From the IMG/VR virus record IMGVR_UViG_3300045988_101799: a stretch of DNA of 64,000 nt. One strand, 5' to 3'. Below the pieces are notes generated by a model. It did no database searches. It worked only from the letters and a program-made list of their open reading frames with translations, and was not told the DNA's origin. A program made the position numbers and the translations under genes. This stretch comes from a virus. This document shows, piece after piece, positions 4,910 through 40,872 of this stretch; the first letter of the stretch is position 1; each line of letters starts with the position of its first letter.

Positions 4910-5023
4910 CCCAACAATTTCTTGCACTCCTTCGGGTTTCCCGTTTAACTCGGAAGATAATGCAGGAACAAAAAGAACAATACGAACGAAATCCAAAAAG
5001 TTATAACCACTACTATCAAGAAT

Positions 5024-5560: not shown

Positions 5561-5586
5561 TAAAACCCAGATACTATTATCCGTAC

Positions 5587-6493: not shown

Positions 6494-6735
6494 CTAGCGA
6501 ACAGAAGAAATATCGTAAACTTGTACGGAAAATTATTCGGACAATCTGTAAGAACTTAGTGAAGAAAGCTAGCGAGTATAACAAGGTTCCCTTAAGGATG
6601 GAGTATGTTACCTTATTGGAGTTTGTACTTATGCCGCCTTCAGATTGTCACGAGATAGTAGAGAAAGAACTTGACAATCTCATTAGCGAAGGTATTATTC
6701 CAGTCAGAAAGGAAGACGACAATGGAGATAGGTAA
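6484..6735 (+). CDS. hypothetical basic protein
   Basis: 83-aa ORF with a Lys/Arg-rich N-terminus. Confidence 0.4.
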   Translation: MEMTSEQKKYRKLVRKIIRTICKNLVKKASEYNKVPLRMEYVTLLEFVLMPPSDCHEIVEKELDNLISEGIIPVRKEDDNGDR

Positions 6736-6745
6736 TCCTAAAAAC

Positions 6746-8716: not shown

Positions 8717-9020
8717 CGAATTTACACGCAACCCCTTCGTATGTCGGCTCATCTTTCGTGAAGCTGGCGTTGCCATCTATGAGCTAACCCATAAAGGAAG
8801 CGGGAAGGTAAACAATTATGAGGTTGTCATCATCCGTCAGCACAAAGCGGACAATGATTTCATCAAGGTTAAAGCCGGAGATGAATACCTCCCCAGCACC
8901 AGTGAGTGGGGCCAGTATGGATGGACATTCCCCACTCTTGAACTCGCAAACTACAAAGCCAAACATATCATTCATGAACGTTCTATGGATAAATCAGGAA
9001 GTCACACTTCCGCTAACTAA
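8700..9020 (+). CDS. hypothetical protein
   Basis: 106-aa ORF whose ATG overlaps the ligase stop codon. Confidence 0.45.
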   Translation: MKKIPNEFTRNPFVCRLIFREAGVAIYELTHKGSGKVNNYEVVIIRQHKADNDFIKVKAGDEYLPSTSEWGQYGWTFPTLELANYKAKHIIHERSMDKSGSHTSAN

Positions 9021-9636: not shown

Positions 9637-10238
9637 GCCGTATCAGTCTCAAGAAGTATCGGGAACAGATGGAAGCCGATATGAAGGCCAATCGCCTAAA
9701 GCGTCGAAGAGGAAAGTTCAAGTGCAAGAAATATAAAGGAAAATTTTACTGGTATCGAGATAGTCCCGCGGAGCAAAGGAAGTTCTTGAGGGAGACAAAA
9801 GCTAACAAGCTTCGGTCTCGCATCATGCCTGAACATAAGCAACTTATCCATGCCTCTCTCCGGTCGAAGAAACAACTGACCGAGGAACAACTAACCTATG
9901 GTCGCATCCTTGCGTCCAATAAAATATCTACTGGTGCAGTTGGAGAAACTACCCCAGATGAAACCCCTAGCTGGATTAAGGGGGACAACTCCTTTTTCTT
10001 CCAGTTTAAATTTCATGGCTATTTCATCAAAGGTATAGTCCCCGTGGCTCTTGTTGGAAGTTCCTCTGCGGTTCTGGAAATATGCAGGAAGGCGTACAAG
10101 TTCGCACGGAGAATTACAAGGAAGTGGACAGTCAAAGAAGGATGTTTAACTCTACCCTCTCCCCGCCTCTTCGTCATAGCCAAGATGTCTATTCGCAAAT
10201 ATATCAACAAACAAATTTACAAGCACCTCACCAAATAA
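9633..10238 (+). CDS. hypothetical basic protein
   Basis: 201-aa Lys/Arg-rich ORF; ATGA overlap with thyX. Confidence 0.45.
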   Translation: MSRISLKKYREQMEADMKANRLKRRRGKFKCKKYKGKFYWYRDSPAEQRKFLRETKANKLRSRIMPEHKQLIHASLRSKKQLTEEQLTYGRILASNKISTGAVGETTPDETPSWIKGDNSFFFQFKFHGYFIKGIVPVALVGSSSAVLEICRKAYKFARRITRKWTVKEGCLTLPSPRLFVIAKMSIRKYINKQIYKHLTK

Positions 10239-10239
10239 C

Positions 10240-10746
10240 ATGCACGCTCACGAAGCAATCAACGCAATCGTTTCAACCAAGGTAAACTCACAGGCTTTCC
10301 CCGACCTGCCGGAAGGAAAGGAATCCATGAACGATGCCGTCAACCACCCGAAGCATTACACCTCCCACCCCAGCGGAATCGAGACCATAGAAATTACTGG
10401 CAAGCTTCCCTTCGCATTAGGGAACGCCGTCAAGTATTTGATGCGGTCACAGTACAAGAAGAACCGTATTGAAGACCTCAAGAAAGCACGATGGTATTTG
10501 GAGTACCACGCTAAGCACTGGTCCAAGGTGTTCGAAACGTTTGACCTTTACCTTATCCTTGAACAGTTCAGGCGTACAGTCATGAGCCATAGCTACCAAC
10601 GTAGTCCCGAAGATTCCATTCTGGTACAGCTCTTCTATATCTGGGCGCATGATAAGTTGGTTGAGGTAAACCCCGCATCAGAATTGCAACGATGTATCGG
10701 AGAGATTACCCAGCTAATAGAATCCCTCGAAGCGAAACAGAACTAA
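10240..10746 (+). CDS. DUF3310-like phage protein
   Basis: NHPKHYTSHPSGIETIEI and KY..R..YK resemble the HPSHY/IE..E core of DUF3310 phage proteins (recalled from memory, not searched). Confidence 0.45.
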   Translation: MHAHEAINAIVSTKVNSQAFPDLPEGKESMNDAVNHPKHYTSHPSGIETIEITGKLPFALGNAVKYLMRSQYKKNRIEDLKKARWYLEYHAKHWSKVFETFDLYLILEQFRRTVMSHSYQRSPEDSILVQLFYIWAHDKLVEVNPASELQRCIGEITQLIESLEAKQN

Positions 10747-10751
10747 AACAA

Positions 10752-10785
10752 AAACCCCGGAAGATATTTCCTTCCGGGGTTTTCG
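10752..10785. terminator. bidirectional rho-independent terminator at the point where the two strands converge
   Basis: AAAACCCCGGAAG-atatttc-CTTCCGGGGTTTT. GC stem of ~10 bp flanked by an A-tract and a T-tract, so it works in both directions. Lies between the last plus-strand gene and the last minus-strand gene. Confidence 0.7.
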
Positions 10786-10869
10786 CTTAGAACCCAAACA
10801 ACTTACAGTCCAAACAGAATGATGTCGTTGCGGATTCTTTATACCATGCAGTACCTATGATGTCAATAC

Positions 10870-11250
10870 CTAACTGACAGGAACTTCGTTTTTCTCAATG
10901 CTCGCCATCAGTTCGGCGAGCTTTTTCTTTTTGGTTTCGAGTTGTTGTTCGAGCCTCTCTATCTCTTTGACGTAATCATGGCACGCATGCTTGGCCGCGT
11001 CCTGATAGGTGAGGAAGACAGTGTGGTTGAGATAGCCATTATCTATGGTTCTGAATCGGTGGTTGATGTATTCGATTCTGACACGAGAAACGAAACATTC
11101 GAAGGCGACATCAGATACTTCAACGGCTCTCACTGTGGGCATGCCACCGCAATGTACGTTAATGTACACCGTGCATCCCTTATAAAGGGGGAGCTTGTTA
11201 GCTTCTTCTGCTGTGAATATTGAGTTCATACGGAGGGAAGTATGTATCAA
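10870..11250 (-). CDS. hypothetical protein with a coiled-coil C-terminus
   Basis: 126-aa ORF. Ends EIERLEQQLETKKKKLAELMASIEK. TAG stop. Confidence 0.45.
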   Translation of the reverse strand: MIHTSLRMNSIFTAEEANKLPLYKGCTVYINVHCGGMPTVRAVEVSDVAFECFVSRVRIEYINHRFRTIDNGYLNHTVFLTYQDAAKHACHDYVKEIERLEQQLETKKKKLAELMASIEKNEVPVS

Positions 11251-11926: not shown

Positions 11927-14900
11927 CTACTGCTTCATCCGATTATGAATTTCCTCCGCACTCAATGCCCCATCAATCTGAATGCTACCCTTCCTCATGA
12001 GGTTGATAATGAGTTTCTTCTGCTCTTCGATTAGGCGTTTGCCCTCGTCCGTGGTATTAGACTTCTGCAATTCGCGGTTGAGCTTCGCGATAGCCTCACG
12101 TCCTGCTTGCGGGCTGATGATGTAGGGCATGATGCCTTTCATGGCCGCGCCGTAGGTCTTGGCACTCATACCGGAAGTCTCAATCGCGGAAGCCAGAACT
12201 TCCTTCCGCAGAGCGGGGTCAAGCATGTTTGTAATTTCCGTAACAAACCGGACACTATTGACTAGCTTGGTGAAATTCTTCACGGCATCCGCGGTTTCCA
12301 CGGCTTCCATGAGTTCCACATCCACCCCGGATTCCATTCTCTTGTAGAAGTCCGGACGAAGAACGCTCGTTCGCTTTGACTTAGTGACTGCCGCGTTGGC
12401 ATTCTTTAACCCGGCGGCAAGGGCTTCGGTCAAATCCTTCGGACGACGGAGGCCCGCACCCAAGGACTGTAACCCGTATGCCGCGGCACTCATGTCAGGT
12501 GTATCGCTAAACGCTTGTTTACCTGACTTGACTGCCCAGCCGTAGAAGGGAATCTTTTTATTGGCAACCGTCGCGAATCGTTCAAGGACTTGCCATGTAT
12601 GTCCACTGCCGAACGAGGGGTTCAGCCCTGCGGCCAACAGGATTGCGTTGCCGACTGCCGGGAGAACGTTGACGCTTTCATCACCGGAGAGGCTATGCTT
12701 GTAATTGAAGTCTTCCTCATTAAACAATTCAGAAGCGGCATTCAGAAGGAGGGATTCTTCAAGCACCGTATTTTCCAGCAGGTTTTTCAGTTCGGCAACC
12801 TTGTTCATCCCCCACTTGTCCACATCCATATCCATGAAGAGGCTGGGCAGGGTTTTGGCTAACACCTTGATGGTCTTGAACGGGTTCATGTATTCAAGGT
12901 TCAAATACTCGAACTCATGTCGCTTCATATCTATGATGCCAATCAAGTCCCCGAACTTATCGTAGTCTGGAATTAGACCACTGTCTGCCAGCTTCCTCAT
13001 GACTTCCGCGTCGTCAATGATTTTACGGTCATCGTCATCTCCCAAGACACTGGTGATAATCTGTCGGGCAACCCAGGAAGAGACCGCAGAGGTTGCAGAA
13101 ATAGTTCCTACGGAACCAGCGATGCGAACGAAAGCGCGTCCCAAGAGGTAAGCCCCCTCCTTCTTCATGCCGTTATTGATAGCCCACACACCATCTACCC
13201 CTTCGCCTATGGCGTGGCCAAGGTTGTAGACTACAGACTGGGCGGTATGGTACTGGAACATGAAGAACGGAGCCGCAACTATATTCAGGGTTTTCACCCA
13301 CGAAGGAGTACGTGAACCCGTGGGGAGCAAGCTCTTCACCATGTGGGCAGTATACCTATCCACATACGCATTCCAACTCTGGGTAGTCTGGCTCGCGTCA
13401 ATGAGTATCTGGTCCCGTGCATTGGGGGTGTCCTTGCCCATCGCCCGTGCCAGTTGTACCTTTAATTGGGTATCGGCAATCGCTCTCTGGTTAGTGAAGA
13501 GAACAATCTTGGCCGCCGCGTCCGGCAAGCCATAGGCGAAGGACATCGTTTTGATGGGCCATGCTACGACTTTGCCCGCCATCTTGGCGGCATCCTTAGC
13601 CACCTCGCCCTTCGTCCGTTCCTGTTTCTCGTTCAGAGCTTCGGCCAGTTTGAAGAAGGAATCCTCATTCACTTCTTCAAATTCTCCTGCCATCTTACTG
13701 AACTCGTCAGACTTCCAGACGTTGCGCAGGAACTCCCCTTGACCTGCGTCCAGCAGACCAAGCTCTTGCCAGTAGCGAATCTTCTCGTTGTACCTGTCTT
13801 CCGCGGCCAGCAGTCTATCCGCGGAAGCCTGTGAAGCAAGGTCCCTGCCCTGTGATAGCCACCATAGCTTACGCAACTGGACCCAGTCCCCGACAAGGTT
13901 TGCGATGTCTTTACTCCCCGTGAATGGAAGTGCACCCGCATGGGTCATTTGAGCTACTGTACCATATAAGTTACGTAACGTGGAATTAGGACTCGCTATT
14001 AAGACAGAAAGGTTAGCCAAGCCACCCGCCTTACTCCACCATTCTTGACCCTTGCCGGACTTCTGCCAGTACTTGCGCACCTTCTTATAGTCGTCCGTCC
14101 TGCTATTCAGGATGTCGTCGCTCGGTCTGTAGATGCGGTAGATGGCATCGGCTACATCCTTGTCGGCGTACATTCCGTTCAACGCATTCTTCGTATTCTT
14201 CAAGGAGATTTCCACCATGTCCGAAGTACGGTTCGTGGAATTCGGGGGTACGACCACACCCTGTGCCTTGAGCACGGAGGTATACTCGTCAGCAAGCAAC
14301 TGGTTCACGGCAATCTTCGACTGCATGGATAGGGTATTCTGTAACGTCCCAATGGCATCCCCAATGGTGAGGTCGCTAAGTTCATACATAGCTTTCCTCT
14401 GCCATTCGGGCAAGCGTTTCCGCTGGGCCAGCGCATCTTCATTCGTCCTCTTCTTGGACAGAACTTCGTCAATGGCCTTCATGGCATCGTTCACCGCAAG
14501 ACGGGAGAGTTCCGGATATTGCAACACTTTCAAGTCGGTAGCGGAGATGACGTTGCCCATATTGTTCGCCCCCATGAGAATGCCCGCCTGACCGCGAAGA
14601 AGATTGAGCGTCTTGTCCAGTCGTTCTGCGGCATTCATATTCGGAGCGTTCCATATCTGGTCAATGGCCGAAGTCGGGATAGTGGGGATGACCTTGTTCA
14701 CTTCGGAAGCCACGGATGCCGGGGAATCAAGACTGCCGATTTTGTCCGCAATCGTTTTTCCCGGAAGGTCGGAGAAGACTTCGGCGAGGAAACTATCTCT
14801 GGCTTTCATGTCCAGAGTTTCCTTCGTCTCTGTCATCTTTGACTTCGTGTGATAGTCTGCCTGTGCTATCATGCTCATGGCCTTATCATATATGGCACTG

Positions 14901-17900
14901 ATGTTGTGGCCGTCCCTCAAATCTGCAAGCATTTGAACCGCGCCGAAGTTGTTCTGAATGAAGTCAAGAATTTCCCGGTTCCTGTAGTTCTTGGCTACAC
15001 CTTCGAACAGGAGTTTATAATTCGCAGAGGCTCCCGTGGGAGCTGACACCAGCGGAAGTTTCAACTCGTCGTGGAGCGCGGCCAATGCCTGCATGTTGTC
15101 CAGCACTTGGCTTACGTTTTCGGATAGTTCTCTCTGGTGCGCTTCGGCATGAGAGATTGCGGCTTCCTGCAACAGTTTCGTCAGACCGTCGTATTTCTGC
15201 GCCAGTTCTCCGTTGGGGTTTGCGATGATGTCCTTCATCGTCCGGGTGAAGTCTCCGGCATGGCGTCCTACGGCCATGTAGGTGCGATGAAGATAATTCA
15301 TCTCCGCGGCGTTGTCAGCCATACGGCTATCTCCAATGAGCTTGGCAATAGAGATTTGCGTTGCGGCAATTTCTTTACGGGAATCGGCGATGACATTGTG
15401 GACCAGTTGACCTACAACCCCTTGTGACAGAAGCCACTGTTCAGCGGCATCCCGCTTAGCCATATACTCCGCTTGTTTTTGACGGCGTGCATTGAGGATA
15501 GCGTTGTCCCGTTTCAGCCACACGGAACCAGCAGGGGTAGCTACGCCAGCGCGAGTTACACCCGCCTTCTTTGTTGCGGCGTAGAAATCCTCCTTGGCTT
15601 CCCGGATGATTTGTTTAGCTTCGGCCCGTGCCTTAGCGATGTCCTGAATCATAGGAGCGACGGCGGGATGGTTTGTACTCTCCGCATAGAGGAAGTCATT
15701 GCGAAGGTTGGACCACCTGTCCAGAAGTTCATCCATAGAGAAGGGACTATCCGCTTCGTTAATCATATCCGCGAGATAGTTTTGCGTGTCGCGGGCAAGA
15801 CCGAAGTAGGCAGTTTCCAGATTGGCATCCCCCGTCGCGGAGATACGAGAGCCGAGGTCGGAGAGCGATTTGTGAATCTGCTGGGAGAGCATGGGGAGAG
15901 CTACCTGCTTGTCCAGCATGGCACCATATCCCTTGCCGCTCATGTCTTTAATCCGGCGCATCATGTCGTTGATTTCCAATCGCCCTTCACTATTAAGCGC
16001 AAGGGAGTTAGCCAGACGCACCGCTTCCGCGTGCCTATTGACGGCATCGGTGACGGTCTTCTTAGCCAACGCGATACGGAAGTCGCGGGTCTGTTCATGC
16101 TGACGAACTTCTGCTTGAGCCTCTGCGTTAATGCGTGCAACAGTTTCAGGGTCAATATCGTTGTCCATATTCCCCGACATGTCAAGAATGGACTTGCTCC
16201 ATTTCTTTCGCGTAGCGGCATCCCAGCCCAGATTATCCGCACGGCGTTGAAGCATATCGCCGATTTTGTCAATGCGTTTAATACTACGTTCGTATGCCGC
16301 ATTCACGTTGGCCATTTGTTCCAGCACAACCAGCTTCTGTTCCTCGGACTTAACATTGATGCCAGCCTTGTCCCAGTTCTTGGTTACACCCAGCCATCCG
16401 TTCTTAATACTAGTCACCCAGTTCCCGGCATTCGTGCCAATGATTTCTGCGCCAAGGCCGAAGGACAGTCTCCGGGTCATGTCAGTCTCATAGGCCATCG
16501 GGTTAAAATAATCTACCCCGTTGCCCATAGTATAATCCGTATCGTCTACCTTCCATGACGGAGTGCGAGGCATATCGAACCACTTGCCGGGGGTCATGTC
16601 CGCGACGCGGGCCACATAGGAATCCCATTCAGCCACGCGTTCTGCGGCGGTGGTTCCGTCCATATCGTCCGCAGTTTGTCGCACGTCCCTAATCAAATCC
16701 TTAAGCCATTCGACGAGGCGCACATGAATAGGCTTCCGGCCTCCCGCCGCTTCGGCATAGCGAGCCAAATCCGTGATGGTGATATTGTCTCCACTAGCTT
16801 CCGCTACCATGAAGTTCATGACAGGATTGGAGAACGCGACACTGGCAAATTCGTCCGGGCCGCGGAGACCGTAGTTGAGGTCGGAAGCGAGCGCGGCGAT
16901 GGCATTCATCTCATTGATGTCCACGCTAGCGTCATACATAGCGGAGAGACTATCAACAATATTGTTGTAGTTCTCTGCAATCGCGCTTCTAATCTTATCC
17001 ATCCGCTGGGAATAGTCCGTGTTGGTGGTACGAAGATGACGGTCAATGAGGTGGATGACTTCGTGTAGTACCGTTCCCGTTACGCTTTCAATCGCATTGT
17101 CCCGGTTCACGTACAGGTCAATGACACCGCCGACAAGCTTCCCGTCCGTGCCGTTCATGTAGGTGATACTGGCGGGGGAAGAGATGTTCGCCGGAGCATT
17201 GGTTGCACGGATAGCAACATCCAAACCAGCGGCATGCAGTGCGCGGAGCACTCCATCAATGGCCGCGGCCTGTGCGGGAGAAGCATTAACTTGAAGGTCC
17301 GAAAGGATGCCGTAGGCATTTGCGCCAGTCCCATCCGTCGGGAGATTGAGAGCGGAGACCTTGTCTCCCCACTTGGTGCTAGGTGTCCCTCCCTCACCTG
17401 CGTTGTACATGCTTGCGTGCGGAGCGATGACAATGGTTTCTCCCGTGTTGCTGGTAATCATGGGGGCGTTAATCCCGGTCATCTCGTTCAGGGAGACGAG
17501 CTTCGCGCCGCGCTCCAATGGCGTACCATAGGAGAGCCACGCACCAGTATTACTATCGAACGAGGCGATTGCCGCATCCATGTTATCCACGGTTTCCACG
17601 GAACTGGGGGTAACTACTCCCGTCTCTACCATAGCAGTGATGGGGGCAATAGCATTGTCCCTCTCCTTCCGGGCAATAGCTACCGGGGATTCCTTGGGTT
17701 CCGTGGTAGCCGTGGTAGCCGGGGATTCCGTGGTAGCCGCGGCTTCCGTCAATCCGTTGATGACGTGAAGAGCGGCGTCGAGGTCTTCATCTCCTGTAGT
17801 AAGGATGGACAGGTCGTCGTCTACTTCGATAACCTGAACCCGGTCTCCCATAGCATCAAGGGCCTCCGAAAGCATGGTTCGCATGGTGTCGAGGTTTTCC

Positions 17901-20900
17901 TTATTTGGGAATGACAGGGTATTGGGCAAGTCGTTAATGGCTTCTGCCATGAAGGAGCTTGCCGCGGCACTGCCCTCATAGGTATGTATTTCGGAGGCCC
18001 GTTCAACTAGGTTGCGGAACTGGGTGAAGTTGCTGATACCCATACGGACTGCGCCATCCACCCATGCCTTGCGGGTTTCGTCGGAGACAACTAGACTTTC
18101 ATGGGCAATGGATTTGTCCACCCATTCGCGGGCAACTTCCGCGGCATCCCCCTTCTCCCCGGCAATCTCGATAACCTTCTTTCCGGTTTCTACCAAGCTT
18201 TCCGGCACATTGTTTTTGGTAATGGCTTTGCCCGTTTCCTCGATGATGTTGCTCGCATCTTTCGTAATATCCGGTAGCATGGAAGTAGCATCCTTTACAT
18301 CGAGAGTGGGGGCGGCTTCGGTTTGGAAACGTATGTTCCCCTCACCAGCTAAGTGGCTACCAACGTAGCCGCCGATACCTCCGAGGAAAGCAATCTTCAT
18401 AGCCCCACTAATCACTTGGTCAGTAGTGGCAATAGAAGATTCGGAGATTTCTCCGTTCTTCACCAGTTCGGTAAATGCCCATTCTTGGAATTCGTCTGTC
18501 AGTTCTTCGGTGGCTCCTTCCACTACGGCCTTGCTCGTGCTGTACAGATAGGAAGCAACGGCAAACGTCTTTTCCTTCGTGTTCATCTCCTTAAATGGCT
18601 TGCTTCTCCATCCGGCCATCTTCCGTTCAAGAGTTTGGAATGGAGATTGACCGCGAAGGTTTTTAGCCCCAACAATCTTACGCATGTAGGAATCCATACC
18701 TGCGCGGTTGTTGATGAGAGTACTACCAGTAGATACGAGAGCCGCACCAAAGAGGGCACGCATGTTGGCAATGCTCTGTGCCCTGTTCGTGTTCTCGGCA
18801 GTCGGTTCCTTCCCTTCCATCTCCCTATCATAAATGGTATAGAAGATGTCGGAGTAAGCATTCGGTGCAACCTGCGAGATGATGCTAAGATTTACCCCAG
18901 CTCCGGCTCCTGCCCGTTCGAGGTTCAACGCCGCAAGGTTGTCGAGGTTGCGCTGAATAGTTCCACTCAAACGTCCCGCCAATCCCGGACGGGCGGCAGG
19001 GACAAGAGCTTCGGCCCGCTTCGCTACGACGTTAGCCGTTGCCTTCGCGAACCGCGATAGCGCGGTACGTTCCAGTGCACGGCCAGCGAGGCCGCCAACT
19101 TTACCAGCTCCCGCGGTCGCTACCATTTGGTAGCCGAGGTTAGCGATTTCCGCAGTATAGTCCGCAAGGATATTGCCTCGAACAAGTTCAGCTTCCGCTT
19201 CCTGTTTTTTGTTCAGCTGGTCCCAGAGGGTGCGGGTATGTTCCATCGCCGCACGACTGCCAACTGCATTCTGTGCAAAGAGAAGAGCACCATAGGCGGT
19301 ACTTGTCCCAAGGTCGATTGCCTTGTGCGTACCTATCTGTAACCCGCGGAGAACAGAGTTGATGGTGTCTTGCCCTTTCTCCTGCCATGCGGAGAGGATG
19401 TCCTCGTCGCTCTTGCCCGCTTCCTTCTGTTCGTTGTAAAAATTCTTGAAGGAAAGGTGCTTGTCCAGATGCTTCATGGATTCAGTCAAGATAGGGTTGA
19501 ACTGCAAGCCGGAGCCAAGCCACGTATCGCGAAGCGTCCCCAGCGTCTCGTCCAATGCAATGTTGTCCTTCACAAGTTCCTGTGCGGATTTCTTGCGGAG
19601 GTTCTGGAACTTCTCAATGGTGCGATTGATGAGACCTTCGTCCGCGCCACTAGCACGGAGAGCCTCTATGCTCTGGTCCATCAGCTTATCATTGTAGAGA
19701 GCATTGGGGTTCAGTTCGAGTGTGGCGTTCGTATCAACTTCCTTGGTGTGCGGGTTGTACGCAAAGAGACTGCCACGGCCAACACCCAAGTCACCCATAC
19801 GTGCGGCATGGGAGAGGGAGTTAAGGGCATCGCGAGTACTTTCAATATGGTACTGGGCCATGTATTCCTTCAACTGTTCGGGACCTACTTCAAAGGATGG
19901 GCCGCCCGGCACGCCATACTGCCATGAGCCACGCTTCGTTCCCTTCCCCCATTCCATCAAGCTCATTGGGTCAGCGGTCTTACCCACACTATTATCCGGC
20001 TGGAAGGTAAGTACGTCCGCAATTTGTCCCGCCGTGCTTCGGTAGTTAGCCATTGCGCCTTTGACTGCATCCATGAGGGTGCCTCTCGGTGTAGCTTTGG
20101 CGGTATAGTCCTGAATCAGTTTGGTTACTCCCGCTTGACGCAGGGCGGATTTTGGAACCCCCGGAAACCTTGTGGCCACGGCTTCCAGTATAGCCTCACT
20201 CATGCCAATCTGTTCGGGGTTTTCGACGGTCAGAGGGCGGTCCTTCTGGCGGTGAACTTCCTCGGCAATGACCTTTGCCCGTGCACGTATTGCGTCCATG
20301 TCAGCACCGGGGACTAAAGACAGAAGGGCAGAGGCCGCGGCCTCTGGATTGAGAAGCGCGTCGCGAAGTTCGAGATAGGGAAGGCCAGTGTAGTCCTCTT
20401 CGAGGCGTCTTACGATTTTGTCTGCGGCTTCTATCTGTTCACGAATCCTATCATCAACAGGTTTTTCTTTTTTTGAAATGAGTTTTGCTTGGTCTGTATG
20501 GAGTTGTTTCGCATACGCTGTAGCAGATTCCGGGGATTTAATATCTTCCGTACTCCGGGAAAGGTAATCCCCGTAGTCGCGGACAAGCTGGAACATTTTG
20601 CTGGGAGACTTGGAAAGGTTGGCGAGTTCAGCAAAAACATTCCCAGTAAATGAAGGTGCTGAATCAGAGAATTCGCCAACGCCAAGCTCCCCCACGCTCG
20701 TTTGGCTGGGAGTTTTCTTCTGCACGCCCTCCGTCGAAGAAGAGCGGTGTTTGTCGTAAAGAGCCTTAGCGGCACGATAGTTGCCAATGTCTTCGCGCCT
20801 AATCGTATTGATGACGCTTTCTATTTCTTCTGCGGTGTAAGCAATAGGTGCGGTCTCGATGGCTTGTGCCGTAGGTTTACCTGTTCCAACATCTAGATTC

Positions 20901-21622
20901 GAGTTGAGGTAATCCTTCCGGGCCTTCTCCATTGTGGTGGCAATGGATTTGGCCACCGCCTTTGCGTTACGGTTTCTGTCCGCGGCAATGGCGAGGAACT
21001 TTTCCGTCACGACGGGGTTCCCGTCCTCTCCACTTCCGAAGCCAGAGCGGGATAAGAAGGCGGAGTGCGTAGGCGTAAGCTCGGAAGAAGACACAACGGT
21101 AATTCCCGTATTGTTAGCAAGCTTCTTAATGGCCTCGCTATCGCCGCGGGAGGCGGCCGTCAAATCAACCAGTGCATCCTCTCCGCGCTCTACATAGTCT
21201 TTCATGTAGTCGAATCCCTCAAAGCTGTACCCACGGTTTCCTTTGTTCAAGATGTCGAGGGCTTTATTTTCCTCGGCGGTTTTCCATTCTTGTTCCGTAT
21301 GGGCGCGGGATTTATCTTGCCATTCTACATTCTTCGCGTGTTCCGCATCCTTTTTCTGTTTCTCCGCAAAGTCATCAACAGACTTAAAGAGGAAGGTGTC
21401 ATAGTCTGCGGTCGCCGTCGCTCCCTTCTCGGCACGGGTCTGTCTCTTTTCCGCTAACCTTTGCTCGCGGTCCAGTGCTTTCTGTTCTCGGTCCCGCTGT
21501 TTCTGCGCTTGCGTCTCTTGCCACGCGGCGTGCCTTTCTACGGCACGCTGTTCACGTGCAATACTACTTCCCGACGTCGGAGTGAAGTCGGACATATTGG
21601 CGGTACTAAAGTCAATAGCCAT
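11927..21622 (-). CDS. giant (3231-aa) virion/cargo-like protein with a central HExxH zincin-like motif
   Basis: Uninterrupted 9.7-kb ORF with an ATG start. Largely helical, Ala/Glu/Lys-rich. VLHEVIHLIDRH is encoded at 17051-17065, near aa ~1520. No P-loop, no T7-like RNAP motifs, no DxDGD found. It is the last large gene of the late operon. TAG stop. Confidence 0.8.
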   Translation of the reverse strand: MAIDFSTANMSDFTPTSGSSIAREQRAVERHAAWQETQAQKQRDREQKALDREQRLAEKRQTRAEKGATATADYDTFLFKSVDDFAEKQKKDAEHAKNVEWQDKSRAHTEQEWKTAEENKALDILNKGNRGYSFEGFDYMKDYVERGEDALVDLTAASRGDSEAIKKLANNTGITVVSSSELTPTHSAFLSRSGFGSGEDGNPVVTEKFLAIAADRNRNAKAVAKSIATTMEKARKDYLNSNLDVGTGKPTAQAIETAPIAYTAEEIESVINTIRREDIGNYRAAKALYDKHRSSSTEGVQKKTPSQTSVGELGVGEFSDSAPSFTGNVFAELANLSKSPSKMFQLVRDYGDYLSRSTEDIKSPESATAYAKQLHTDQAKLISKKEKPVDDRIREQIEAADKIVRRLEEDYTGLPYLELRDALLNPEAAASALLSLVPGADMDAIRARAKVIAEEVHRQKDRPLTVENPEQIGMSEAILEAVATRFPGVPKSALRQAGVTKLIQDYTAKATPRGTLMDAVKGAMANYRSTAGQIADVLTFQPDNSVGKTADPMSLMEWGKGTKRGSWQYGVPGGPSFEVGPEQLKEYMAQYHIESTRDALNSLSHAARMGDLGVGRGSLFAYNPHTKEVDTNATLELNPNALYNDKLMDQSIEALRASGADEGLINRTIEKFQNLRKKSAQELVKDNIALDETLGTLRDTWLGSGLQFNPILTESMKHLDKHLSFKNFYNEQKEAGKSDEDILSAWQEKGQDTINSVLRGLQIGTHKAIDLGTSTAYGALLFAQNAVGSRAAMEHTRTLWDQLNKKQEAEAELVRGNILADYTAEIANLGYQMVATAGAGKVGGLAGRALERTALSRFAKATANVVAKRAEALVPAARPGLAGRLSGTIQRNLDNLAALNLERAGAGAGVNLSIISQVAPNAYSDIFYTIYDREMEGKEPTAENTNRAQSIANMRALFGAALVSTGSTLINNRAGMDSYMRKIVGAKNLRGQSPFQTLERKMAGWRSKPFKEMNTKEKTFAVASYLYSTSKAVVEGATEELTDEFQEWAFTELVKNGEISESSIATTDQVISGAMKIAFLGGIGGYVGSHLAGEGNIRFQTEAAPTLDVKDATSMLPDITKDASNIIEETGKAITKNNVPESLVETGKKVIEIAGEKGDAAEVAREWVDKSIAHESLVVSDETRKAWVDGAVRMGISNFTQFRNLVERASEIHTYEGSAAASSFMAEAINDLPNTLSFPNKENLDTMRTMLSEALDAMGDRVQVIEVDDDLSILTTGDEDLDAALHVINGLTEAAATTESPATTATTEPKESPVAIARKERDNAIAPITAMVETGVVTPSSVETVDNMDAAIASFDSNTGAWLSYGTPLERGAKLVSLNEMTGINAPMITSNTGETIVIAPHASMYNAGEGGTPSTKWGDKVSALNLPTDGTGANAYGILSDLQVNASPAQAAAIDGVLRALHAAGLDVAIRATNAPANISSPASITYMNGTDGKLVGGVIDLYVNRDNAIESVTGTVLHEVIHLIDRHLRTTNTDYSQRMDKIRSAIAENYNNIVDSLSAMYDASVDINEMNAIAALASDLNYGLRGPDEFASVAFSNPVMNFMVAEASGDNITITDLARYAEAAGGRKPIHVRLVEWLKDLIRDVRQTADDMDGTTAAERVAEWDSYVARVADMTPGKWFDMPRTPSWKVDDTDYTMGNGVDYFNPMAYETDMTRRLSFGLGAEIIGTNAGNWVTSIKNGWLGVTKNWDKAGINVKSEEQKLVVLEQMANVNAAYERSIKRIDKIGDMLQRRADNLGWDAATRKKWSKSILDMSGNMDNDIDPETVARINAEAQAEVRQHEQTRDFRIALAKKTVTDAVNRHAEAVRLANSLALNSEGRLEINDMMRRIKDMSGKGYGAMLDKQVALPMLSQQIHKSLSDLGSRISATGDANLETAYFGLARDTQNYLADMINEADSPFSMDELLDRWSNLRNDFLYAESTNHPAVAPMIQDIAKARAEAKQIIREAKEDFYAATKKAGVTRAGVATPAGSVWLKRDNAILNARRQKQAEYMAKRDAAEQWLLSQGVVGQLVHNVIADSRKEIAATQISIAKLIGDSRMADNAAEMNYLHRTYMAVGRHAGDFTRTMKDIIANPNGELAQKYDGLTKLLQEAAISHAEAHQRELSENVSQVLDNMQALAALHDELKLPLVSAPTGASANYKLLFEGVAKNYRNREILDFIQNNFGAVQMLADLRDGHNISAIYDKAMSMIAQADYHTKSKMTETKETLDMKARDSFLAEVFSDLPGKTIADKIGSLDSPASVASEVNKVIPTIPTSAIDQIWNAPNMNAAERLDKTLNLLRGQAGILMGANNMGNVISATDLKVLQYPELSRLAVNDAMKAIDEVLSKKRTNEDALAQRKRLPEWQRKAMYELSDLTIGDAIGTLQNTLSMQSKIAVNQLLADEYTSVLKAQGVVVPPNSTNRTSDMVEISLKNTKNALNGMYADKDVADAIYRIYRPSDDILNSRTDDYKKVRKYWQKSGKGQEWWSKAGGLANLSVLIASPNSTLRNLYGTVAQMTHAGALPFTGSKDIANLVGDWVQLRKLWWLSQGRDLASQASADRLLAAEDRYNEKIRYWQELGLLDAGQGEFLRNVWKSDEFSKMAGEFEEVNEDSFFKLAEALNEKQERTKGEVAKDAAKMAGKVVAWPIKTMSFAYGLPDAAAKIVLFTNQRAIADTQLKVQLARAMGKDTPNARDQILIDASQTTQSWNAYVDRYTAHMVKSLLPTGSRTPSWVKTLNIVAAPFFMFQYHTAQSVVYNLGHAIGEGVDGVWAINNGMKKEGAYLLGRAFVRIAGSVGTISATSAVSSWVARQIITSVLGDDDDRKIIDDAEVMRKLADSGLIPDYDKFGDLIGIIDMKRHEFEYLNLEYMNPFKTIKVLAKTLPSLFMDMDVDKWGMNKVAELKNLLENTVLEESLLLNAASELFNEEDFNYKHSLSGDESVNVLPAVGNAILLAAGLNPSFGSGHTWQVLERFATVANKKIPFYGWAVKSGKQAFSDTPDMSAAAYGLQSLGAGLRRPKDLTEALAAGLKNANAAVTKSKRTSVLRPDFYKRMESGVDVELMEAVETADAVKNFTKLVNSVRFVTEITNMLDPALRKEVLASAIETSGMSAKTYGAAMKGIMPYIISPQAGREAIAKLNRELQKSNTTDEGKRLIEEQKKLIINLMRKGSIQIDGALSAEEIHNRMKQ

Positions 21623-35546: not shown

Positions 35547-36563
35547 TCATTTTTCTTGGGACTTCATAGTTAATACGAAGCTATTCCAGTGGGCTACCGC
35601 TTCTTCGCGAGTGCGGCCATGAATGGAAATGCTATGTGGAAGAAGCTTGGTCCCGTTGCAGACAACATAGCAATGTTTCTCTCCGGGGTAGATGGTTTCC
35701 TCCACGACCTCCGGGATTTCTCCACAGTAGGGGCAGGGACGTGGATGGGCGTCGCAGGCTTCAAAATACCGTCGCACCTCTTGCCCCACTCTTTCGGTAA
35801 ACATATCAACAATATGCTGTGGCACGATTCCTTTGATTCCGGAACCCACGGTGCCTTCGTCCCCGGATTCCGTGGCTTCCTCGTAGTTCAGGGGATGGTC
35901 CAGCCCCTCGTCGAAACAGGAAGCACAGGGTCCCACGGTTCCGGGCAAGTCCCCGTACTTGCATGTGGAGCAGGGGGAGAGGACATCCTCTTCATCCTCT
36001 TCCGCTTCTTCATATTCCGGGTACTCAATTCCCCGCTCCTGTCGGCAATGAGAGCATGGAGGATTGCAACGGAGGTTATCCCGGTGAGTGCAAGTATTGC
36101 ACGGTTCGATGACATCATCGTTCTCGTCTGTACCTTCGGCACATGGGGCAGATTCATCTGGGGTATAATTCTGATAGCCGTTGCAGGAGATGCAGGGTTC
36201 CTCTTCGATAGATACCCCCTTATGTTTACATGTCAGACAGGTAGGACCAGCCATCTCGGCTTCCCTCCGCTTTGCTTCTTCCCGCTTCATCATCTCCATC
36301 GCCGCCAGCTTGTTGGTATCGGAGGTGAAGCTGGGAAGTCCGGGAGTGAGAGCACACTTCTGACAGGGGGATTGCACCAGCAAGGTATCACGGAATTTGC
36401 AGAGGGAGCACCTCCGTGCATCCTCGCTTGCCGCGGTGTCCGTCGCTTGCGTGGATTCCGTGGATTCAAAGTGGCTAAAGTACATGTCACAACTGGCGCA
36501 GGGTTCCGCGGTGTCGGGGAGGTCACGGTATGCGCAGGTAATACAATTCGGTTCGTCGTTCAT
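35547..36563 (-). CDS. multi-zinc-ribbon protein with a C-terminal Lar-like (restriction alleviation) domain
   Basis: Five tandem C-x2-C-x(11-13)-P-C-x2-C modules (CITCAYRD...CASC, CSLCKFRD...CQKC, CLTCKHKG...CISC, CNTCTHRD...CSHC, CSTCKYGD...CASC). The C-terminus RPCPYCGEIPE...HCYVVCNG...EEAVAHWNSF resembles Lar family proteins (PCPFCG...EAIEAWNRR). Confidence 0.6.
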   Translation of the reverse strand: MNDEPNCITCAYRDLPDTAEPCASCDMYFSHFESTESTQATDTAASEDARRCSLCKFRDTLLVQSPCQKCALTPGLPSFTSDTNKLAAMEMMKREEAKRREAEMAGPTCLTCKHKGVSIEEEPCISCNGYQNYTPDESAPCAEGTDENDDVIEPCNTCTHRDNLRCNPPCSHCRQERGIEYPEYEEAEEDEEDVLSPCSTCKYGDLPGTVGPCASCFDEGLDHPLNYEEATESGDEGTVGSGIKGIVPQHIVDMFTERVGQEVRRYFEACDAHPRPCPYCGEIPEVVEETIYPGEKHCYVVCNGTKLLPHSISIHGRTREEAVAHWNSFVLTMKSQEK

Positions 36564-36681
36564 TTTCTTTTGATGTATTTCTTAATGGTTTCGATTACCC
36601 ACAGGGTGAATAGGGCGAGTGCGCACAGAGCAATAGCACCCCATGCGAGGATGTCAGTAATACCAACAAATATTGTCATGG

Positions 36682-37161
36682 TTAGTCGATTAGTTTGAGG
36701 TCAAAGAACATAACGGTGTTGAAGTAGCTAGTGGTCACTCCATCGATAGCTACCCAGCCGTCGCTGTCTTCATCATCGTAAACCGCGTACTCCTGATAGG
36801 GTGTAGGCTCTTCATCGTAGCTTACCCAGCCGCGAGGAACGTATTGTACCCTATCCCCTCTCTTGAACGGTCGCCGGGGTTTGGCGGTGTTATTGCAACT
36901 GGCGCGGACAGATTCTTCTGGCGCATCTAGAACTTCTTCTGGCGCATCTAGAACTTCTTCTGGCGCATCTAGAACTTCTTCCATCTGGTAAGCAGAGGCC
37001 CACTCCGCTAATCCTCCCGAATAGCGTACCTTGTACGGGTAGAAGTCCTTTTCGTTGTCGATTTCCACGACGCGACCGCAAGGGCCGTAGTCGACGCGGA
37101 CAATCATTCCGAGTTTAACTTGATTCTTTTCCATGTTAGAATTTGATGTTTGGGTATTCAC
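36682..37161 (-). CDS. hypothetical protein with two Tudor/SH3-like motifs and an (EEVLDAP)x3 repeat
   Basis: KLGMIVRVDYGPCGRVVEI at the N-terminus and PFKRGDRVQYVPRGW at the C-terminus. The central EEVLDAPEEVLDAPEEVLDAPEE is encoded by a 21-bp x3 tandem repeat. Confidence 0.5.
   Translation of the reverse strand: MNTQTSNSNMEKNQVKLGMIVRVDYGPCGRVVEIDNEKDFYPYKVRYSGGLAEWASAYQMEEVLDAPEEVLDAPEEVLDAPEESVRASCNNTAKPRRPFKRGDRVQYVPRGWVSYDEEPTPYQEYAVYDDEDSDGWVAIDGVTTSYFNTVMFFDLKLID
36915..36977. repeat. 21-bp tandem repeat x3 (CTTCTGGCGCATCTAGAACTT)
   Basis: Three exact in-frame copies inside CDS 36682..37161. Confidence 0.85.
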
Positions 37162-37615: not shown

Positions 37616-38200
37616 TTACTCGGCTTGCTCCATTCCCCACGGCCATTCAACTATATTGCCGGGTTCAATGCTTCGCCCATCCTCCAACAGGATGCGCATG
37701 GAGACGCGGGTTCTTCCTGCAACGATTCCGGTATGCCGACGGAACATACCATCGAAGTACTGGATTTCGGAACCGGGTTGAAGACGCAGAAGCGGAGGAC
37801 AATGGTCAATGAAGAATCGAGCATTATTCCATGCCTCTTCATACGCTGTCTCCGGGTCATCGTTATCACATCCTTGCACGGCCAGTGAGCAACTCACACA
37901 TTGAATGAACTCGTAGTTACCCTTCCGTCTTTCTTCCAGCAGACCACCGCAGATAGGACAGAACAGTGGGGGAGGTTCTTCCTCTGGGAATGCCTCATCA
38001 AAGGCCTTCTCAACTACTGCTTGCGATTCTACGGATTCATCGCGAAAAGAGAATTCGCTCTTGGTAGGAATGTTCGTTGGGGCCGTGGTATTGGCTTTAA
38101 CTATTTTCGGGCTAAGGTCTGACATATAAACGTGTGTCAAGCCATTGGCCTCGTCAATAACAATCTTGGTTATCTGTTTGGGGTTTGATGTCTTGGACAT
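37616..38200 (-). CDS. Lar-like zinc-ribbon protein (restriction alleviation family candidate)
   Basis: CPICGGLLEERRKGNYEFIQCVSCSLAVQGC...AYEEAWNNARFF matches the Lar family hallmarks: CPxCGG, a second C-x2-C, and the terminal EAWN. Confidence 0.55.
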   Translation of the reverse strand: MSKTSNPKQITKIVIDEANGLTHVYMSDLSPKIVKANTTAPTNIPTKSEFSFRDESVESQAVVEKAFDEAFPEEEPPPLFCPICGGLLEERRKGNYEFIQCVSCSLAVQGCDNDDPETAYEEAWNNARFFIDHCPPLLRLQPGSEIQYFDGMFRRHTGIVAGRTRVSMRILLEDGRSIEPGNIVEWPWGMEQAE

Positions 38201-38338
38201 GGCACCACCATATAATAGTTTTATTATTTGTCAAGAAATTATTTCAATAAAAATCCCCGGAGGGGTTAGCCTCCGGGGCGATGTGCTACTTGCGCTTCCA
38301 GCCAAGTAAGTCAAGAAGTTCGAGTAAGCTCATGATTA

Positions 38339-38731
38339 TCATCCTTTTGTGAAGAAGTTAAAGAAGGATAGTGTACCGCTATCGGTGAGTACGAACTGGG
38401 GATATTGGTCAGGGGTAAATATTTTTGTACCCCCGGAATCCCCGGTAGCCTCGACAGTCAGAAGGACTGCGGGCACCTTGTCCGTCGGGCTGGATGGAGA
38501 TGGAATATCTCCCAATCGTGCCCAAACTTGGCACGCTTGCCACTGTTCGTCAAGAGCGGCAATGGCCTCGATAGCCTTGGCTATTGCAGGTATCTGCTCA
38601 TCCGGAACTGTGGTCTCACTGTACTGGTCAAGGTGCGTAAAGCCCAGTGCGTCCACGTAGATTACACTCATAATGAGCTTGGTCCAGTTGCCGGGCTGCG
38701 GGAACTGAATTTGTATTTCTGCGTCGTTCAT
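38339..38731 (-). CDS. hypothetical protein
   Basis: 130-aa ORF immediately downstream of the tail fibre gene. Confidence 0.5.
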   Translation of the reverse strand: MNDAEIQIQFPQPGNWTKLIMSVIYVDALGFTHLDQYSETTVPDEQIPAIAKAIEAIAALDEQWQACQVWARLGDIPSPSSPTDKVPAVLLTVEATGDSGGTKIFTPDQYPQFVLTDSGTLSFFNFFTKG

Positions 38732-38733
38732 GA

Positions 38734-40872
38734 TTAGAGAGGTATGTTAATATCTTCAAAATCAGCTGTTTCCTCGGATTCAATGGCATTGACGGCCATT
38801 GCTTCCAGTCCATAAAAGACCGGGTTCGTGCCTCCCGGCTGGTAATAGGTGTGTTCTCCGTCACCTGCATTGATGTAAGTGTCACCAGACGAATTATTCA
38901 CCACATCAGTTACCCAGCTAATAATACCGGAGTTTGTCTCAAAGTTACTGACACCGCGGCATGTGGCAATTTTATACAGATTATTTGCCTGACCTCCGGT
39001 GAGCATGAGCCAGAGTGTACCCAGATTATCATACTGGGCAATATCGGCCGGAGCGTTCTGCTGGTAAATAACCTTGGCAATCGTCCAAGGGATGGGTTCG
39101 TTTTGATTGGCCGGGATGAAGCTGGTGGTGGTTTTCACCAGCCAGCCCGCCGTGGAATCGAGTGCGAAAATCTCACGCACCCGCACCGTATAACCGTTGC
39201 GCTGGGTATCTCTGACGTTGTCAAAGGTAATATCCAGAATTTCGCCATGATTGTACGCCAAATCGTTTGCCGGGATAATACTGTAAGAATCTATGGAAAG
39301 GTCGGGACGAACCGTCTTCGCGCCACGGCCGATACCAAAGGTCAACTTTGCGGCATCAGTAGCACGCCAAACGAAAGAGAACCCTGCGAAACTGGAATAA
39401 TTCCAGCGGGCATTAACTCCCACAAAGGCCGCCTGAATGGTCGAATGAGTTCCCGGTGGAACCTTAATAGTAGCTATATGGTAGGGGACTTTTTGGGTCA
39501 CCGTCGAAGTCCCTGTCTTGGTAATGGTCGCCGTATTGAGGAAAGCATTAGTGGTCAGGATGTTCGTCTCGCCAGCCAATCCTAGCGCATAAAAGCGATT
39601 AACCGCCCCCGTATTCGTCGGTGCACCCGCGGCCAGCGGGATGTTAATCCCGGCGTTGGCATTAGGAGTTTTGGTGAACGTCAGAACACCGTCCACGGAA
39701 ATGGTGCCGTACATACGGGTTTGGACGTTGAACGTAACTACCCCGTTATGGTTTTCATTTCTGTAGACCCACAAGTGCCCAGCCCCATCGATGGTCATTG
39801 TCTTATCGTTGACGTTATTAGGGTCCGTTATGGAGAGGAAACCGTTGGATTCTTCGTAAAGTATGGCTCGCGTAGGACCGCTCTCCTTGCCGAAGAGGAT
39901 GCACTTCATCTTCTCGCCAGTGGTGGCAACGAAGCTAATGCCGTCATCAAAAGTGGTGGGGTTTTGGAACTTGACAGGAATCGCAACGTCCATGTGAGAA
40001 GCGCTCGTCCCCTCAATGACTGCGGCTCCGTTACCATCGCCGTGGATTTTAAGAGCATTTTCTCCTTGTCCGAGAACTAAAGGAACTTCGTTTCCGAGAA
40101 CCAATCCCGCCGTGTTGGTGAAACTCCATGCCCCGGAGATTGTCTGGTCACTAGCTGGGTCAAAGCCAGTGCCAGAACCGCCACCCTCACCGGAGCCTAA
40201 ACTAAAATTTCGGATAGAGACGAAGAAGTCCGCTTCTTCAATCGTACTGCCGAGAGAAAGAATTGCGGAAGTTTCAGTTGCCACAAAGACCAGCTGGTCA
40301 GTAGTCTTACCGCCAGCGAGGAATGCCTTAGGATTGTTGTCGGCTCCTACGCTAAAGAGCGCATAGCTGAATTCCGGATTAGGCTTCGTTTCCATCAAGC
40401 CACCCAAGTCAGGATGCACATTGATAGAGTAGAGCTTACCACTTTCGAGGTTGGAGATTTTGTAGAAACCTTCGGAGACAGGACCATCACCGTCCAGCGG
40501 GAGGGCCTGATACTCTTGGTCGTAGTCGAACCCCAGCGGGTGAAGTGCAATCGTCGCGTGTGCACTTTCGACGGAGGCGTTCTTGTCCTGCGCGTTAGTG
40601 GGGACGACGAAGTACTTACCGTCGGGGGATTCAATCTCAATCACCTGTCCCGCGACCGAGCCATTGATGATGAACTGTTCCGGCGTAATGTTGGACCACA
40701 GTTCGTCAGTAGGAGCGGTAGCGGAAAGCTTGAAGAGACAGGGAGAACTGGAAGCAAGAAGCCACGCGGTGTGCGTGTCGGCATCGCCCAGCTTATAGGT
40801 TACGCCCGGTGTAATAGGAGAACCGTTGACGTAATTTTCAATTTGGATTTCAGAAGAACGTTTACGTGCCAT
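38734..40872 (-). CDS. tail fibre / receptor-binding protein candidate
   Basis: 712-aa ORF rich in Gly/Ser/Thr/Asn, with beta-strand repeats and a GSGEGGGSGTG linker. Confidence 0.5.
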   Translation of the reverse strand: MARKRSSEIQIENYVNGSPITPGVTYKLGDADTHTAWLLASSSPCLFKLSATAPTDELWSNITPEQFIINGSVAGQVIEIESPDGKYFVVPTNAQDKNASVESAHATIALHPLGFDYDQEYQALPLDGDGPVSEGFYKISNLESGKLYSINVHPDLGGLMETKPNPEFSYALFSVGADNNPKAFLAGGKTTDQLVFVATETSAILSLGSTIEEADFFVSIRNFSLGSGEGGGSGTGFDPASDQTISGAWSFTNTAGLVLGNEVPLVLGQGENALKIHGDGNGAAVIEGTSASHMDVAIPVKFQNPTTFDDGISFVATTGEKMKCILFGKESGPTRAILYEESNGFLSITDPNNVNDKTMTIDGAGHLWVYRNENHNGVVTFNVQTRMYGTISVDGVLTFTKTPNANAGINIPLAAGAPTNTGAVNRFYALGLAGETNILTTNAFLNTATITKTGTSTVTQKVPYHIATIKVPPGTHSTIQAAFVGVNARWNYSSFAGFSFVWRATDAAKLTFGIGRGAKTVRPDLSIDSYSIIPANDLAYNHGEILDITFDNVRDTQRNGYTVRVREIFALDSTAGWLVKTTTSFIPANQNEPIPWTIAKVIYQQNAPADIAQYDNLGTLWLMLTGGQANNLYKIATCRGVSNFETNSGIISWVTDVVNNSSGDTYINAGDGEHTYYQPGGTNPVFYGLEAMAVNAIESEETADFEDINIPL

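Follow-up and report, generated by a model that had tools for sequence, protein, structure and literature searches.

Lar (RalR; b1348), from the prophage Rac in Escherichia coli K-12, is a stand-alone protein of 64 amino acids (aa), and is the only Lar known to alleviate restriction (King and Murray 1995, cited in PMC4041452). Both Lar and Ral of phage lambda are described as alleviating restriction by EcoKI (PMC12707154; King and Murray 1995, cited in PMC4041452), while a later report describes the same E. coli protein as a DNase toxin, with an activity that the mutation K52Q abolishes (PMC4041452). Searches of the literature on the Lar family, Lar_restr_allev and DUF3310 gave annotation mentions only. 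Here we describe a gene with a Lar-like C-terminal domain, found in a 64,000 nt stretch of viral DNA (IMG/VR record IMGVR_UViG_3300045988_101799; the whole stretch is referred to as the window). The gene lies at nt 35547..36563 on the minus strand, and its product of 338 aa carries five tandem Cys4 modules ahead of the Lar-like domain, which forms the C-terminal quarter of the fusion. This arrangement had been proposed from the letters alone (the sequence-only reading) and was followed up computationally.

Minimal Cys4 ribbons, in which two CxxC knuckles stand about 10–11 residues apart, are likewise found in the Pfam families zinc_ribbon_2 (PF13240) and DZR (PF12773) and in RanBP2-type fingers (C-x2-C-x10-C-x2-C); RanBP2-type fingers also occur in tandem arrays with flexible linkers. 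The modules of the window protein differ from these in having no Gly after the knuckles and in lacking the conserved Trp/Asn of RanBP2 fingers. They resemble the mini-domain of the phrog_19852 type in their Cys spacing, which is identical, in the Pro that precedes the third Cys, in an aromatic residue or His two places beyond the second Cys, with Lys in between in three of the five, and in the acidity of the tail, but most members of that type carry a single module, whereas five copies are present here, and NYTPDE, HFESTE or NYEEATE stand in the place of W-x-P-K-E. T7 gp1.7 (DUF3310) is also Cys-rich in its N-terminal half, and DUF3310 partners the mini-domain in other proteins, but the window protein has no DUF3310 domain, and gp1.7 was rejected as a carrier of the same module because it does not have the C-x2-C-x11-C-x2-C spacing. 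Lambda Ral, Ocr and ArdA are candidate functional analogues, with no sequence or structural similarity to the protein. Ocr and ArdA are strongly acidic, as is the array described here, and acidic arrays resemble DNA-mimic anti-restriction proteins.

The Cys4 module array and the Lar-like domain

The open reading frame (ORF) encodes 338 aa plus a stop codon, with a calculated isoelectric point (pI) of 4.6 and 27 Cys, and both its N-terminus (MNDEPNC) and its C-terminus are conserved in 120 homologues. Five modules were located by a regular-expression scan, all on the minus strand: module A (CITCAYRDLPDTAEPCASC; nt 36489..36545, aa 7–25), which is present in 79 of 80 full-length relatives; module B (CSLCKFRDTLLVQSPCQKC; nt 36354..36410, aa 52–70), which is missing from many relatives; module C (CLTCKHKGVSIEEEPCISC; nt 36183..36239, aa 109–127); module D (CNTCTHRDNLRCNPPCSHC; nt 36045..36101, aa 155–173); and module E (CSTCKYGDLPGTVGPCASC; nt 35916..35972, aa 198–216). 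Successive modules start 45, 57, 46 and 43 aa apart. All five have the exact spacing C-x2-C-x11-C-x2-C, with Pro preceding the third Cys. The residue after the second Cys is A, K, K, T and K in modules 1–5 (Lys in three of the five), and the next position is Y, F, H, H and Y, i.e., aromatic or His in every case. The signature CxxC[AKT][YFH][RKG]D given by the sequence-only reading fits four of the modules; the third has G in place of D.

The presence of five tandem Cys4 modules was borne out against composition-preserving shuffles of the protein (n = 100,000), among which 1,048 contained one module, five contained two, and none reached three or more. No further occurrence of the pattern was found in the six frames of the window outside this gene. 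There are no DNA-level repeats within the gene, so that the modules count as old paralogues, and a recent tandem duplication of DNA was ruled out as their source. Rubredoxin-like Fe centres and the repeats of precursors of ribosomally synthesised and post-translationally modified peptides (RiPPs) were also considered, and found no support from sequence or context.

The array is strongly acidic, with 50 Asp and Glu against 20 Lys and Arg in aa 1–245 (pI 4.3, net charge −30). The linkers had been described as acidic, which agrees with this overall composition, but the linker between modules B and C (nt 36252..36317, minus strand; aa 83–104) is an exception, being of mixed charge and predicted to be helical by AlphaFold2 (AF2), with a predicted local distance difference test score (pLDDT) of about 60–74. 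In the AF2 model of the full-length protein (pLDDT 52) the array falls below 50 and appears disordered, whereas module C alone, when modelled with an alignment of 102 modules, gave a mean pLDDT of 82. Zinc-ribbon families of Pfam did not match the array even at E ≤ 1, and a Foldseek search of the Protein Data Bank (PDB) with the single-module model returned zero matches. The unannotated PHROGs family phrog_19852 matched the protein in two stretches (E = 1.5e-5), the best-scoring of which spans aa 197–231, corresponding to module E.

The remainder of the protein begins with a conserved helix (nt 35751..35819, minus strand; aa 249–271 in the AF2 model), which is also found in relatives that consist of the C-terminal domain alone (P0128–P0132). 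Residues I251, D253, M254, E257 and Q261 of this helix are invariant in the family alignment. It is followed by a divergent Lar/RalR-like zinc ribbon (nt 35577..35741, minus strand; aa 275–329), made up of a PCPYCG knuckle, three strands, the motif CYVVCNG and an EEAVAHWN helix. The helix, three strands and final helix are modelled by AF2 with a pLDDT of about 76–90 over aa 249–337. P276-C277-P278-Y279-C280 of the first knuckle are invariant across the family, and G281 is nearly so (≥90%). The segment EEAVAHWN (aa 320–327) fits the E-A-x-x-x-W-N of Lar; W326 and N327 are nearly invariant, and the AF2 helix extends over aa 319–337. A PCP[FY]CG knuckle, a beta-ribbon with CNG, a C-terminal EA..WN helix and a phage origin are thus common to this domain and to Lar.

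Three independently built Lar profiles match the protein solely at aa 274–328, and no better match for this region exists in the libraries concerned, and the stretch picked out by the sequence-only reading (PCPYCGE...CYVVCNG...EEAVAHWN) is the only part recognised as Lar-like by the profiles. The E-values were 9e-4 for Pfam PF14354 (Lar_restr_allev; 19.8 bits), 1.6e-5 for NCBIfam TIGR03655 (anti_R_Lar; 25.1 bits) and 1.8e-4 for phrog_599 ('Lar-like restriction alleviation protein'). Among 52 family members, 32 were matched by PF14354 at E < 0.01 (best E 7.2e-5). E. coli Lar itself aligned by BLASTP with aa 275–327 (32% identity over 53 aa, pairwise E = 1e-4). When a profile of 85 C-terminal domains was compared with the E. 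coli Lar clade by hhalign, the probability was 92.2% (E = 6e-7), a figure to be read with the shallowness of the Lar profile, since a word-index search with E. coli Lar gave only homologues at least 73% identical to it; the probability rose to 98.7% once P0158 and P0160, members of PF14354 that score above its threshold, were included. In the reverse direction, the family profile recovered true PF14354 members at E < 1e-3 among 1.84 billion representatives, including P0158 (45.9 bits against PF14354).

Set against these matches are several features that separate the domain from Lar. Both curated profiles score it below their cut-offs (28.6 bits for PF14354 and 39.6 bits for TIGR03655). The second knuckle of Lar, CNGC, is not matched, as the sequence is CNGT here and CNGA in relatives; C298 and C302 (C-x3-C) could serve as replacement metal ligands in the window protein, and the sister group has Arg in place of C298. 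The basic residues K52 and R53 of RalR correspond to S328 and F329, and there is a four-residue insertion (LLPH). The antitoxin RNA context of RalR was not evident at this locus, in an analysis that made no search aimed at one. At the level of structure, the best Foldseek matches of the full model in the PDB were double-stranded RNA (dsRNA)-binding domains (E = 0.05, not significant), and nothing significant was found in BFVD, where a TFIIS-like phage protein gave E = 0.037. The sequence-only reading is therefore upheld in part. Homology to Lar is well supported by the profile and pairwise comparisons, and is remote, lying below all curated thresholds; because of the sub-cut-off scores, the differing second knuckle and the differing residues after WN, certified membership of the Lar family is not established. 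We place at roughly 0.85 the probability that the protein is a beads-on-a-string array of five Cys4 knuckle mini-domains of ~30 aa, in front of a conserved helix and a divergent Lar/RalR-like ribbon, with architecture and homology as described.

Variation among relatives and occurrence of the module in other phages

A word-index search gave 120 relatives with identities of 43–96%, all metagenomic and on contigs of up to about 70 kb, and tblastn of the protein against 50,697 cultured phage genomes gave no match. Module types were assigned in 80 full-length cluster representatives, which display 33 collinear architectures of one to six modules each, always in the fixed order A, F, B, C, c, D, E/e, H. 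The architecture of the window, A-B-C-D-E, is the commonest (20 of 80). The one relative without module A starts with an A/C hybrid, and other hybrids, such as the head of A joined to E's tail or B's first half joined to E, show in-register recombination between modules. All 80 have the Lar-like domain, as follows from the way in which the full-length set was assembled, and the domain is close to invariant when they are aligned. Proteins encoded on either side of the gene are 70–98% identical to those of the window and the C-terminal domain of the protein itself is 66–90% identical, while its N-terminal part differs between syntenic phages by insertions and deletions of whole modules. Between phages that are otherwise syntenic, the middle modules come, go and recombine in register, and what relatives retain is the first module and the C-terminal domain. 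A fusion of five ribbons to a Lar-like domain, as originally described, is both real and unusual, but the number five is not fixed, and the module is not peculiar to this protein.

The ratio of non-synonymous to synonymous substitution rates (dN/dS) was calculated for one pair, the window and a related contig (L002), and came to 0.54 overall, against 0.32 for the C-terminal domain; the module cores gave 1.7, which is not a robust figure, as only two synonymous and 12 non-synonymous changes underlie it. Homologues of 248 aa, considered as natural truncations, proved to be gene-calling artefacts, and L002 holds a full ORF of 338 aa.

Frame-shifted versions of the gene were seen in several relatives (P0037, P0039, P0043, P0058, P0084, P0085, P0097, P0100, P0117–P0120, P0122, P0124, P0126 and L097). 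The shifts recur at G-runs, such as GTGGGGGAA in EVVGE variants and GAGGGG(G)CTG in module E, and their products are array-only and Lar-only ORFs. Such shifts could reflect sequencing error, pseudogenisation or slippage-based switching. A metagenomic chimera (P0127) joins the N-terminal 72 aa of the 194-aa protein encoded nearby to the C-terminal part of the present protein, which in window terms connects nt 37616–38200 to nt 35547–about 35700. The junction is a shared 'PE' directly after the first zinc knuckle of each protein, and the chimera implies either a deletion of roughly 2 kb between two zinc-ribbon genes or an assembly artefact.

Beyond this family, an exhaustive profile search of the 1.84 billion representatives returned 48 proteins at E ≤ 1e-3. 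About 30 of these are unrelated phage-like proteins with two to ten copies of the module by the strict pattern, and the rest are family members or the solo C-terminal-domain proteins (P0128–P0132). The module consensus is C-x2-C-[KR]-[YHF]-x9-P-C-x2-C followed, after 3–12 residues, by [WFY]-x-P-K-E, and the 11-residue spacing is invariant. Across the aligned family and distant modules the four Cys are invariant, which is weak evidence because the instances were picked by their Cys pattern. The Pro before the third Cys (≥90% in the same alignment) is independent evidence; it occurs in 97% of the 71 distant modules and in practically every one of the 241 unique family modules. After the second Cys, the distant modules have Lys or Arg in 72% of cases and then Tyr, His or Phe in 94%.

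The two pure-array proteins P0134 and P0135 had no Pfam match at E ≤ 0.1, and phrog_19852, which also matches the distant array proteins, alone covers the module. A word-index search with an alignment of the module gave no candidates. A strict back-translated DNA pattern, for which fewer than one chance occurrence was expected by our estimate, was found in at least 120 viral contig stretches of IMG/VR. Most of the matches listed are single-module proteins of 50–100 aa. Among all the matches listed, the commonest fusion partner is DUF3310 (the T7 gp1.7 family, named nucleotide kinase in PHROGs), carried by seven of the 28 viral ORFs that are non-redundant and at least 100 aa long; dGTP_diPhyd_N and HNH are other partners. 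The Lar-like partner was seen solely in this phage lineage and its sister group. P0135, from an unrelated phage contig (L009, nt 4448–8742), is a stand-alone array of seven modules encoded between NrdD/NrdG and a dUTPase, near DNA polymerase A, a context that may connect the mini-domain with nucleotide metabolism. Arrays of the module are generally acidic (median pI 4.8). The module is thus a widespread phage mini-domain, mostly single-copy and absent from Pfam.

Genomic setting and probable host

The order of genes around the locus is conserved in relatives, and runs from proteins of 130 aa and 194 aa to a membrane protein of 153 aa, a protein of about 140–159 aa, a hydrophobic peptide of 39–43 aa, the Lar-like fusion, and then proteins of 76, 158, 117 (winged helix-turn-helix, wHTH) and 144 aa. 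In the window, the hydrophobic peptide is a single-transmembrane-like ORF of 39 aa (MTIFVGITDILAWGAIALCALALFTLWVIETIKKYIKRK; nt 36560..36679, minus strand), the stop codon of which overlaps the start codon of the fusion gene (ATGA). A small ORF of 39–43 aa is found at the equivalent position in L002 and L006–L008, and the overlap together with this conserved position suggests that translation of a small membrane peptide is coupled to that of the zinc-knuckle protein.

The 194-aa protein is encoded by the first gene of the unit (nt 37616..38200, minus strand). It had been taken for a single-domain Lar-like protein, and that description was not sustained: it is only weakly Lar-like in profile searches (PF14354 E = 0.006, 17.2 bits; hhalign against Lar 8–47% probability), TIGR03655 did not match it, and it has several parts, with N- and C-terminal extensions around a central CPICGG...CVSC zinc ribbon that is followed by EEAW. 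Ahead of this gene (nt 38207..38278, minus strand), a strong terminator-like hairpin (nt 38278–38255) is succeeded by a promoter-like site (nt 38234–38207), both of them consensus matches of a kind not more numerous than in shuffled sequence. This boundary probably marks the start of the transcription unit that contains the fusion gene. Its position between the tail-fibre block and the 194-aa gene suggests that the fusion gene is part of a distinct unit, made up of small, non-structural genes.

Two other features of the locus were noted in passing. The upstream gene for the protein of 159 aa (nt 36682–37161, minus strand) has a tandem EEVLDAP repeat in three copies at about aa 63–85; relatives have two copies (143 aa, L002) or shorter versions (135–136 aa), so that this is a second repeat of variable copy number in the operon. 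In one relative (L007, nt 9752–10963), a gene for an IS605 OrfB/TnpB (Cas12f-like) protein lies a few genes downstream of the locus, and is absent from the window.

Phage genes recognised in the window include those for an NAD-dependent ligase, the large terminase, an exonuclease, a helicase, DNA polymerase A, a protein with a VapE-like primase/helicase domain and a peptidoglycan-binding protein. The large terminase had no tblastn match among the 50,697 cultured phage genomes. A giant ORF of 3231 aa (nt 11927–21622, minus strand) gave no match at E ≤ 0.001 in a scan confined to Pfam, and ORFs of 985, 756, 712, 418 and 406 aa matched neither Pfam nor PHROGs. Much of the phage is unannotatable.

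One region (nt 38685–39661) shows 79.6% DNA identity to Akkermansia phage Chantilly (ON453895.1, nt 16396–17372; L012), a virus isolated on Akkermansia muciniphila. The match covers the C-terminal third of the 712-aa tail-fibre-like gene and the start of the next gene, and looks like a shared receptor-binding module; the rest of the region between nt 30000 and 50000 did not match Chantilly or any other cultured phage. Identity in the tail fibre suggests that A. muciniphila is the host. A scan of Genome Taxonomy Database (GTDB) genomes found no relative, and hence no confirmation of the host by that route. The source of the DNA is an uncultivated gut phage of roughly 70 kb, the host of which is probably Akkermansia.

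Proposed function and alternatives

The fusion protein may be a host-takeover or anti-defence factor, to which we would give slightly less than an even chance, and a specific role in alleviating restriction is doubtful. On this view the strongly acidic protein would be a cytoplasmic accessory, predicted to bind one zinc ion per module and one in the C-terminal ribbon, about six in total. By analogy with Lar, the Lar-like domain would be the conserved effector end that engages a host target, the leading candidate being a type I restriction-modification methyltransferase, while the variable, polyanionic array may give multivalent attachment to, or serve as a decoy for, a partner from host or phage that also varies. 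The change in bead number from phage to phage suggests a role in host interaction. Simultaneous binding of several restriction-modification subunits or stretches of DNA, as put forward by the sequence-only reading, is purely conjectural, and the strong acidity of the array argues against simple DNA binding. A bolder and rather improbable extension is that the mini-domain is an undescribed phage 'adaptor bead', which would bring diverse small effectors (Lar-like, gp1.7-like kinase, dNTP pyrophosphohydrolase-like, HNH; dNTP, deoxynucleoside triphosphate) to a common cellular partner, with the number and type of beads reshuffled in register as an arms-race device against a variable component of host defence.

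Several points tell against an anti-defence role. The homology to Lar is remote, S328 and F329 stand in place of K52 and R53, C-x3-C takes the place of the canonical second CxxC, and the structure searches brought no informative match. The precedent is confined to the single E. coli protein, the same one reported as a DNase toxin, and the fusion partners and gene contexts of the module elsewhere point to nucleotide or DNA metabolism rather than to anti-restriction. The main rival follows from these contexts: the protein would be an accessory of DNA or nucleotide metabolism, its array tethering small effector domains to DNA itself or to the machinery of replication or dNTP supply, and its Lar-like domain acting on DNA, as RalR does. 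In its favour are the prominence of DUF3310 among the module's partners in the matches listed, alongside dGTP_diPhyd_N and HNH, the seven-module array encoded between NrdD/NrdG and dUTPase near DNA polymerase A, and the annotation and publication of E. coli Lar/RalR as a non-specific endodeoxyribonuclease (PMC4041452). It is nevertheless unlikely, as the window protein is without an equivalent of the K52 needed for RalR DNase activity, the net charge of its array is unfavourable for DNA binding, and its gene lies outside the replication module (53–62 kb), after the tail-fibre gene.

That position could also indicate a virion-associated or ejected protein, which with an anti-defence role would resemble T4 IPI or P1 Dar, since the gene stands on the same strand as, and between, the tail-fibre-like gene (nt 38734–40872) and downstream genes for the peptidoglycan-binding, 985-aa and 3231-aa proteins, which may be late or virion genes. 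We consider this quite improbable: no structural PHROG or Pfam family matches the protein, the terminator- and promoter-like boundary parts its gene from the tail-fibre operon, the neighbours encode small wHTH or unknown proteins, and a structural protein would not usually show such plasticity of copy number or frame-disrupted variants. A zinc-ribbon transcription or regulatory factor, acting on phage or host genes, would fit with the frequency of zinc ribbons among transcription factors, the nearby wHTH genes and the weak Foldseek matches (TFIIS-like phage protein, E = 0.037; dsRNA-binding-domain-like alpha-beta3-alpha topology, E = 0.05). None of these structural matches is significant, however, the protein is acidic and matches no DNA-binding family, and its variation in copy number is hard to square with a dedicated regulator, so that little credence attaches to this explanation. 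About 16 of 127 cluster representatives (~13%) are frame-disrupted, often at G-runs, which implies that at least some genomes can dispense with the gene and counts against the anti-defence reading. Together with the overall dN/dS of 0.54 and the existence of single-module and solo-domain relatives, this might be taken as the mark of a decaying or near-neutral repeat gene without important function. Conserved synteny, a nearly invariant C-terminal domain and a collinear module order speak the other way, as do the recurrence of the module in at least 120 viral contig stretches and, weakly, given that instances were chosen by Cys pattern, its four invariant Cys; decay is very improbable.

The fusion is real and unusual, in that a Lar-like zinc ribbon is joined to an array, variable by cassettes, of a phage mini-domain that is uncurated. 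Annotated members of the Lar family are found in thousands of phages, and only the E. coli protein has been studied, with two conflicting reported activities. No long-standing question is answered by these results alone; their useful outcomes are the natural copy-number series and the uncovered mini-domain. A conserved Lar-like end joined to a naturally variable array provides a ready-made deletion series, from one to six modules, for probing what the domain binds. A common phage mini-domain without a curated family has also been brought to light, and the partners to which it is fused hint at a target in common. Should A. muciniphila be the host, the gene bears on phage–host conflict in a medically interesting gut bacterium, and if the mini-domains do serve as adaptor beads reshuffled against host defence, the array would amount to an anti-defence decoy or clamp that is both multivalent and tunable.

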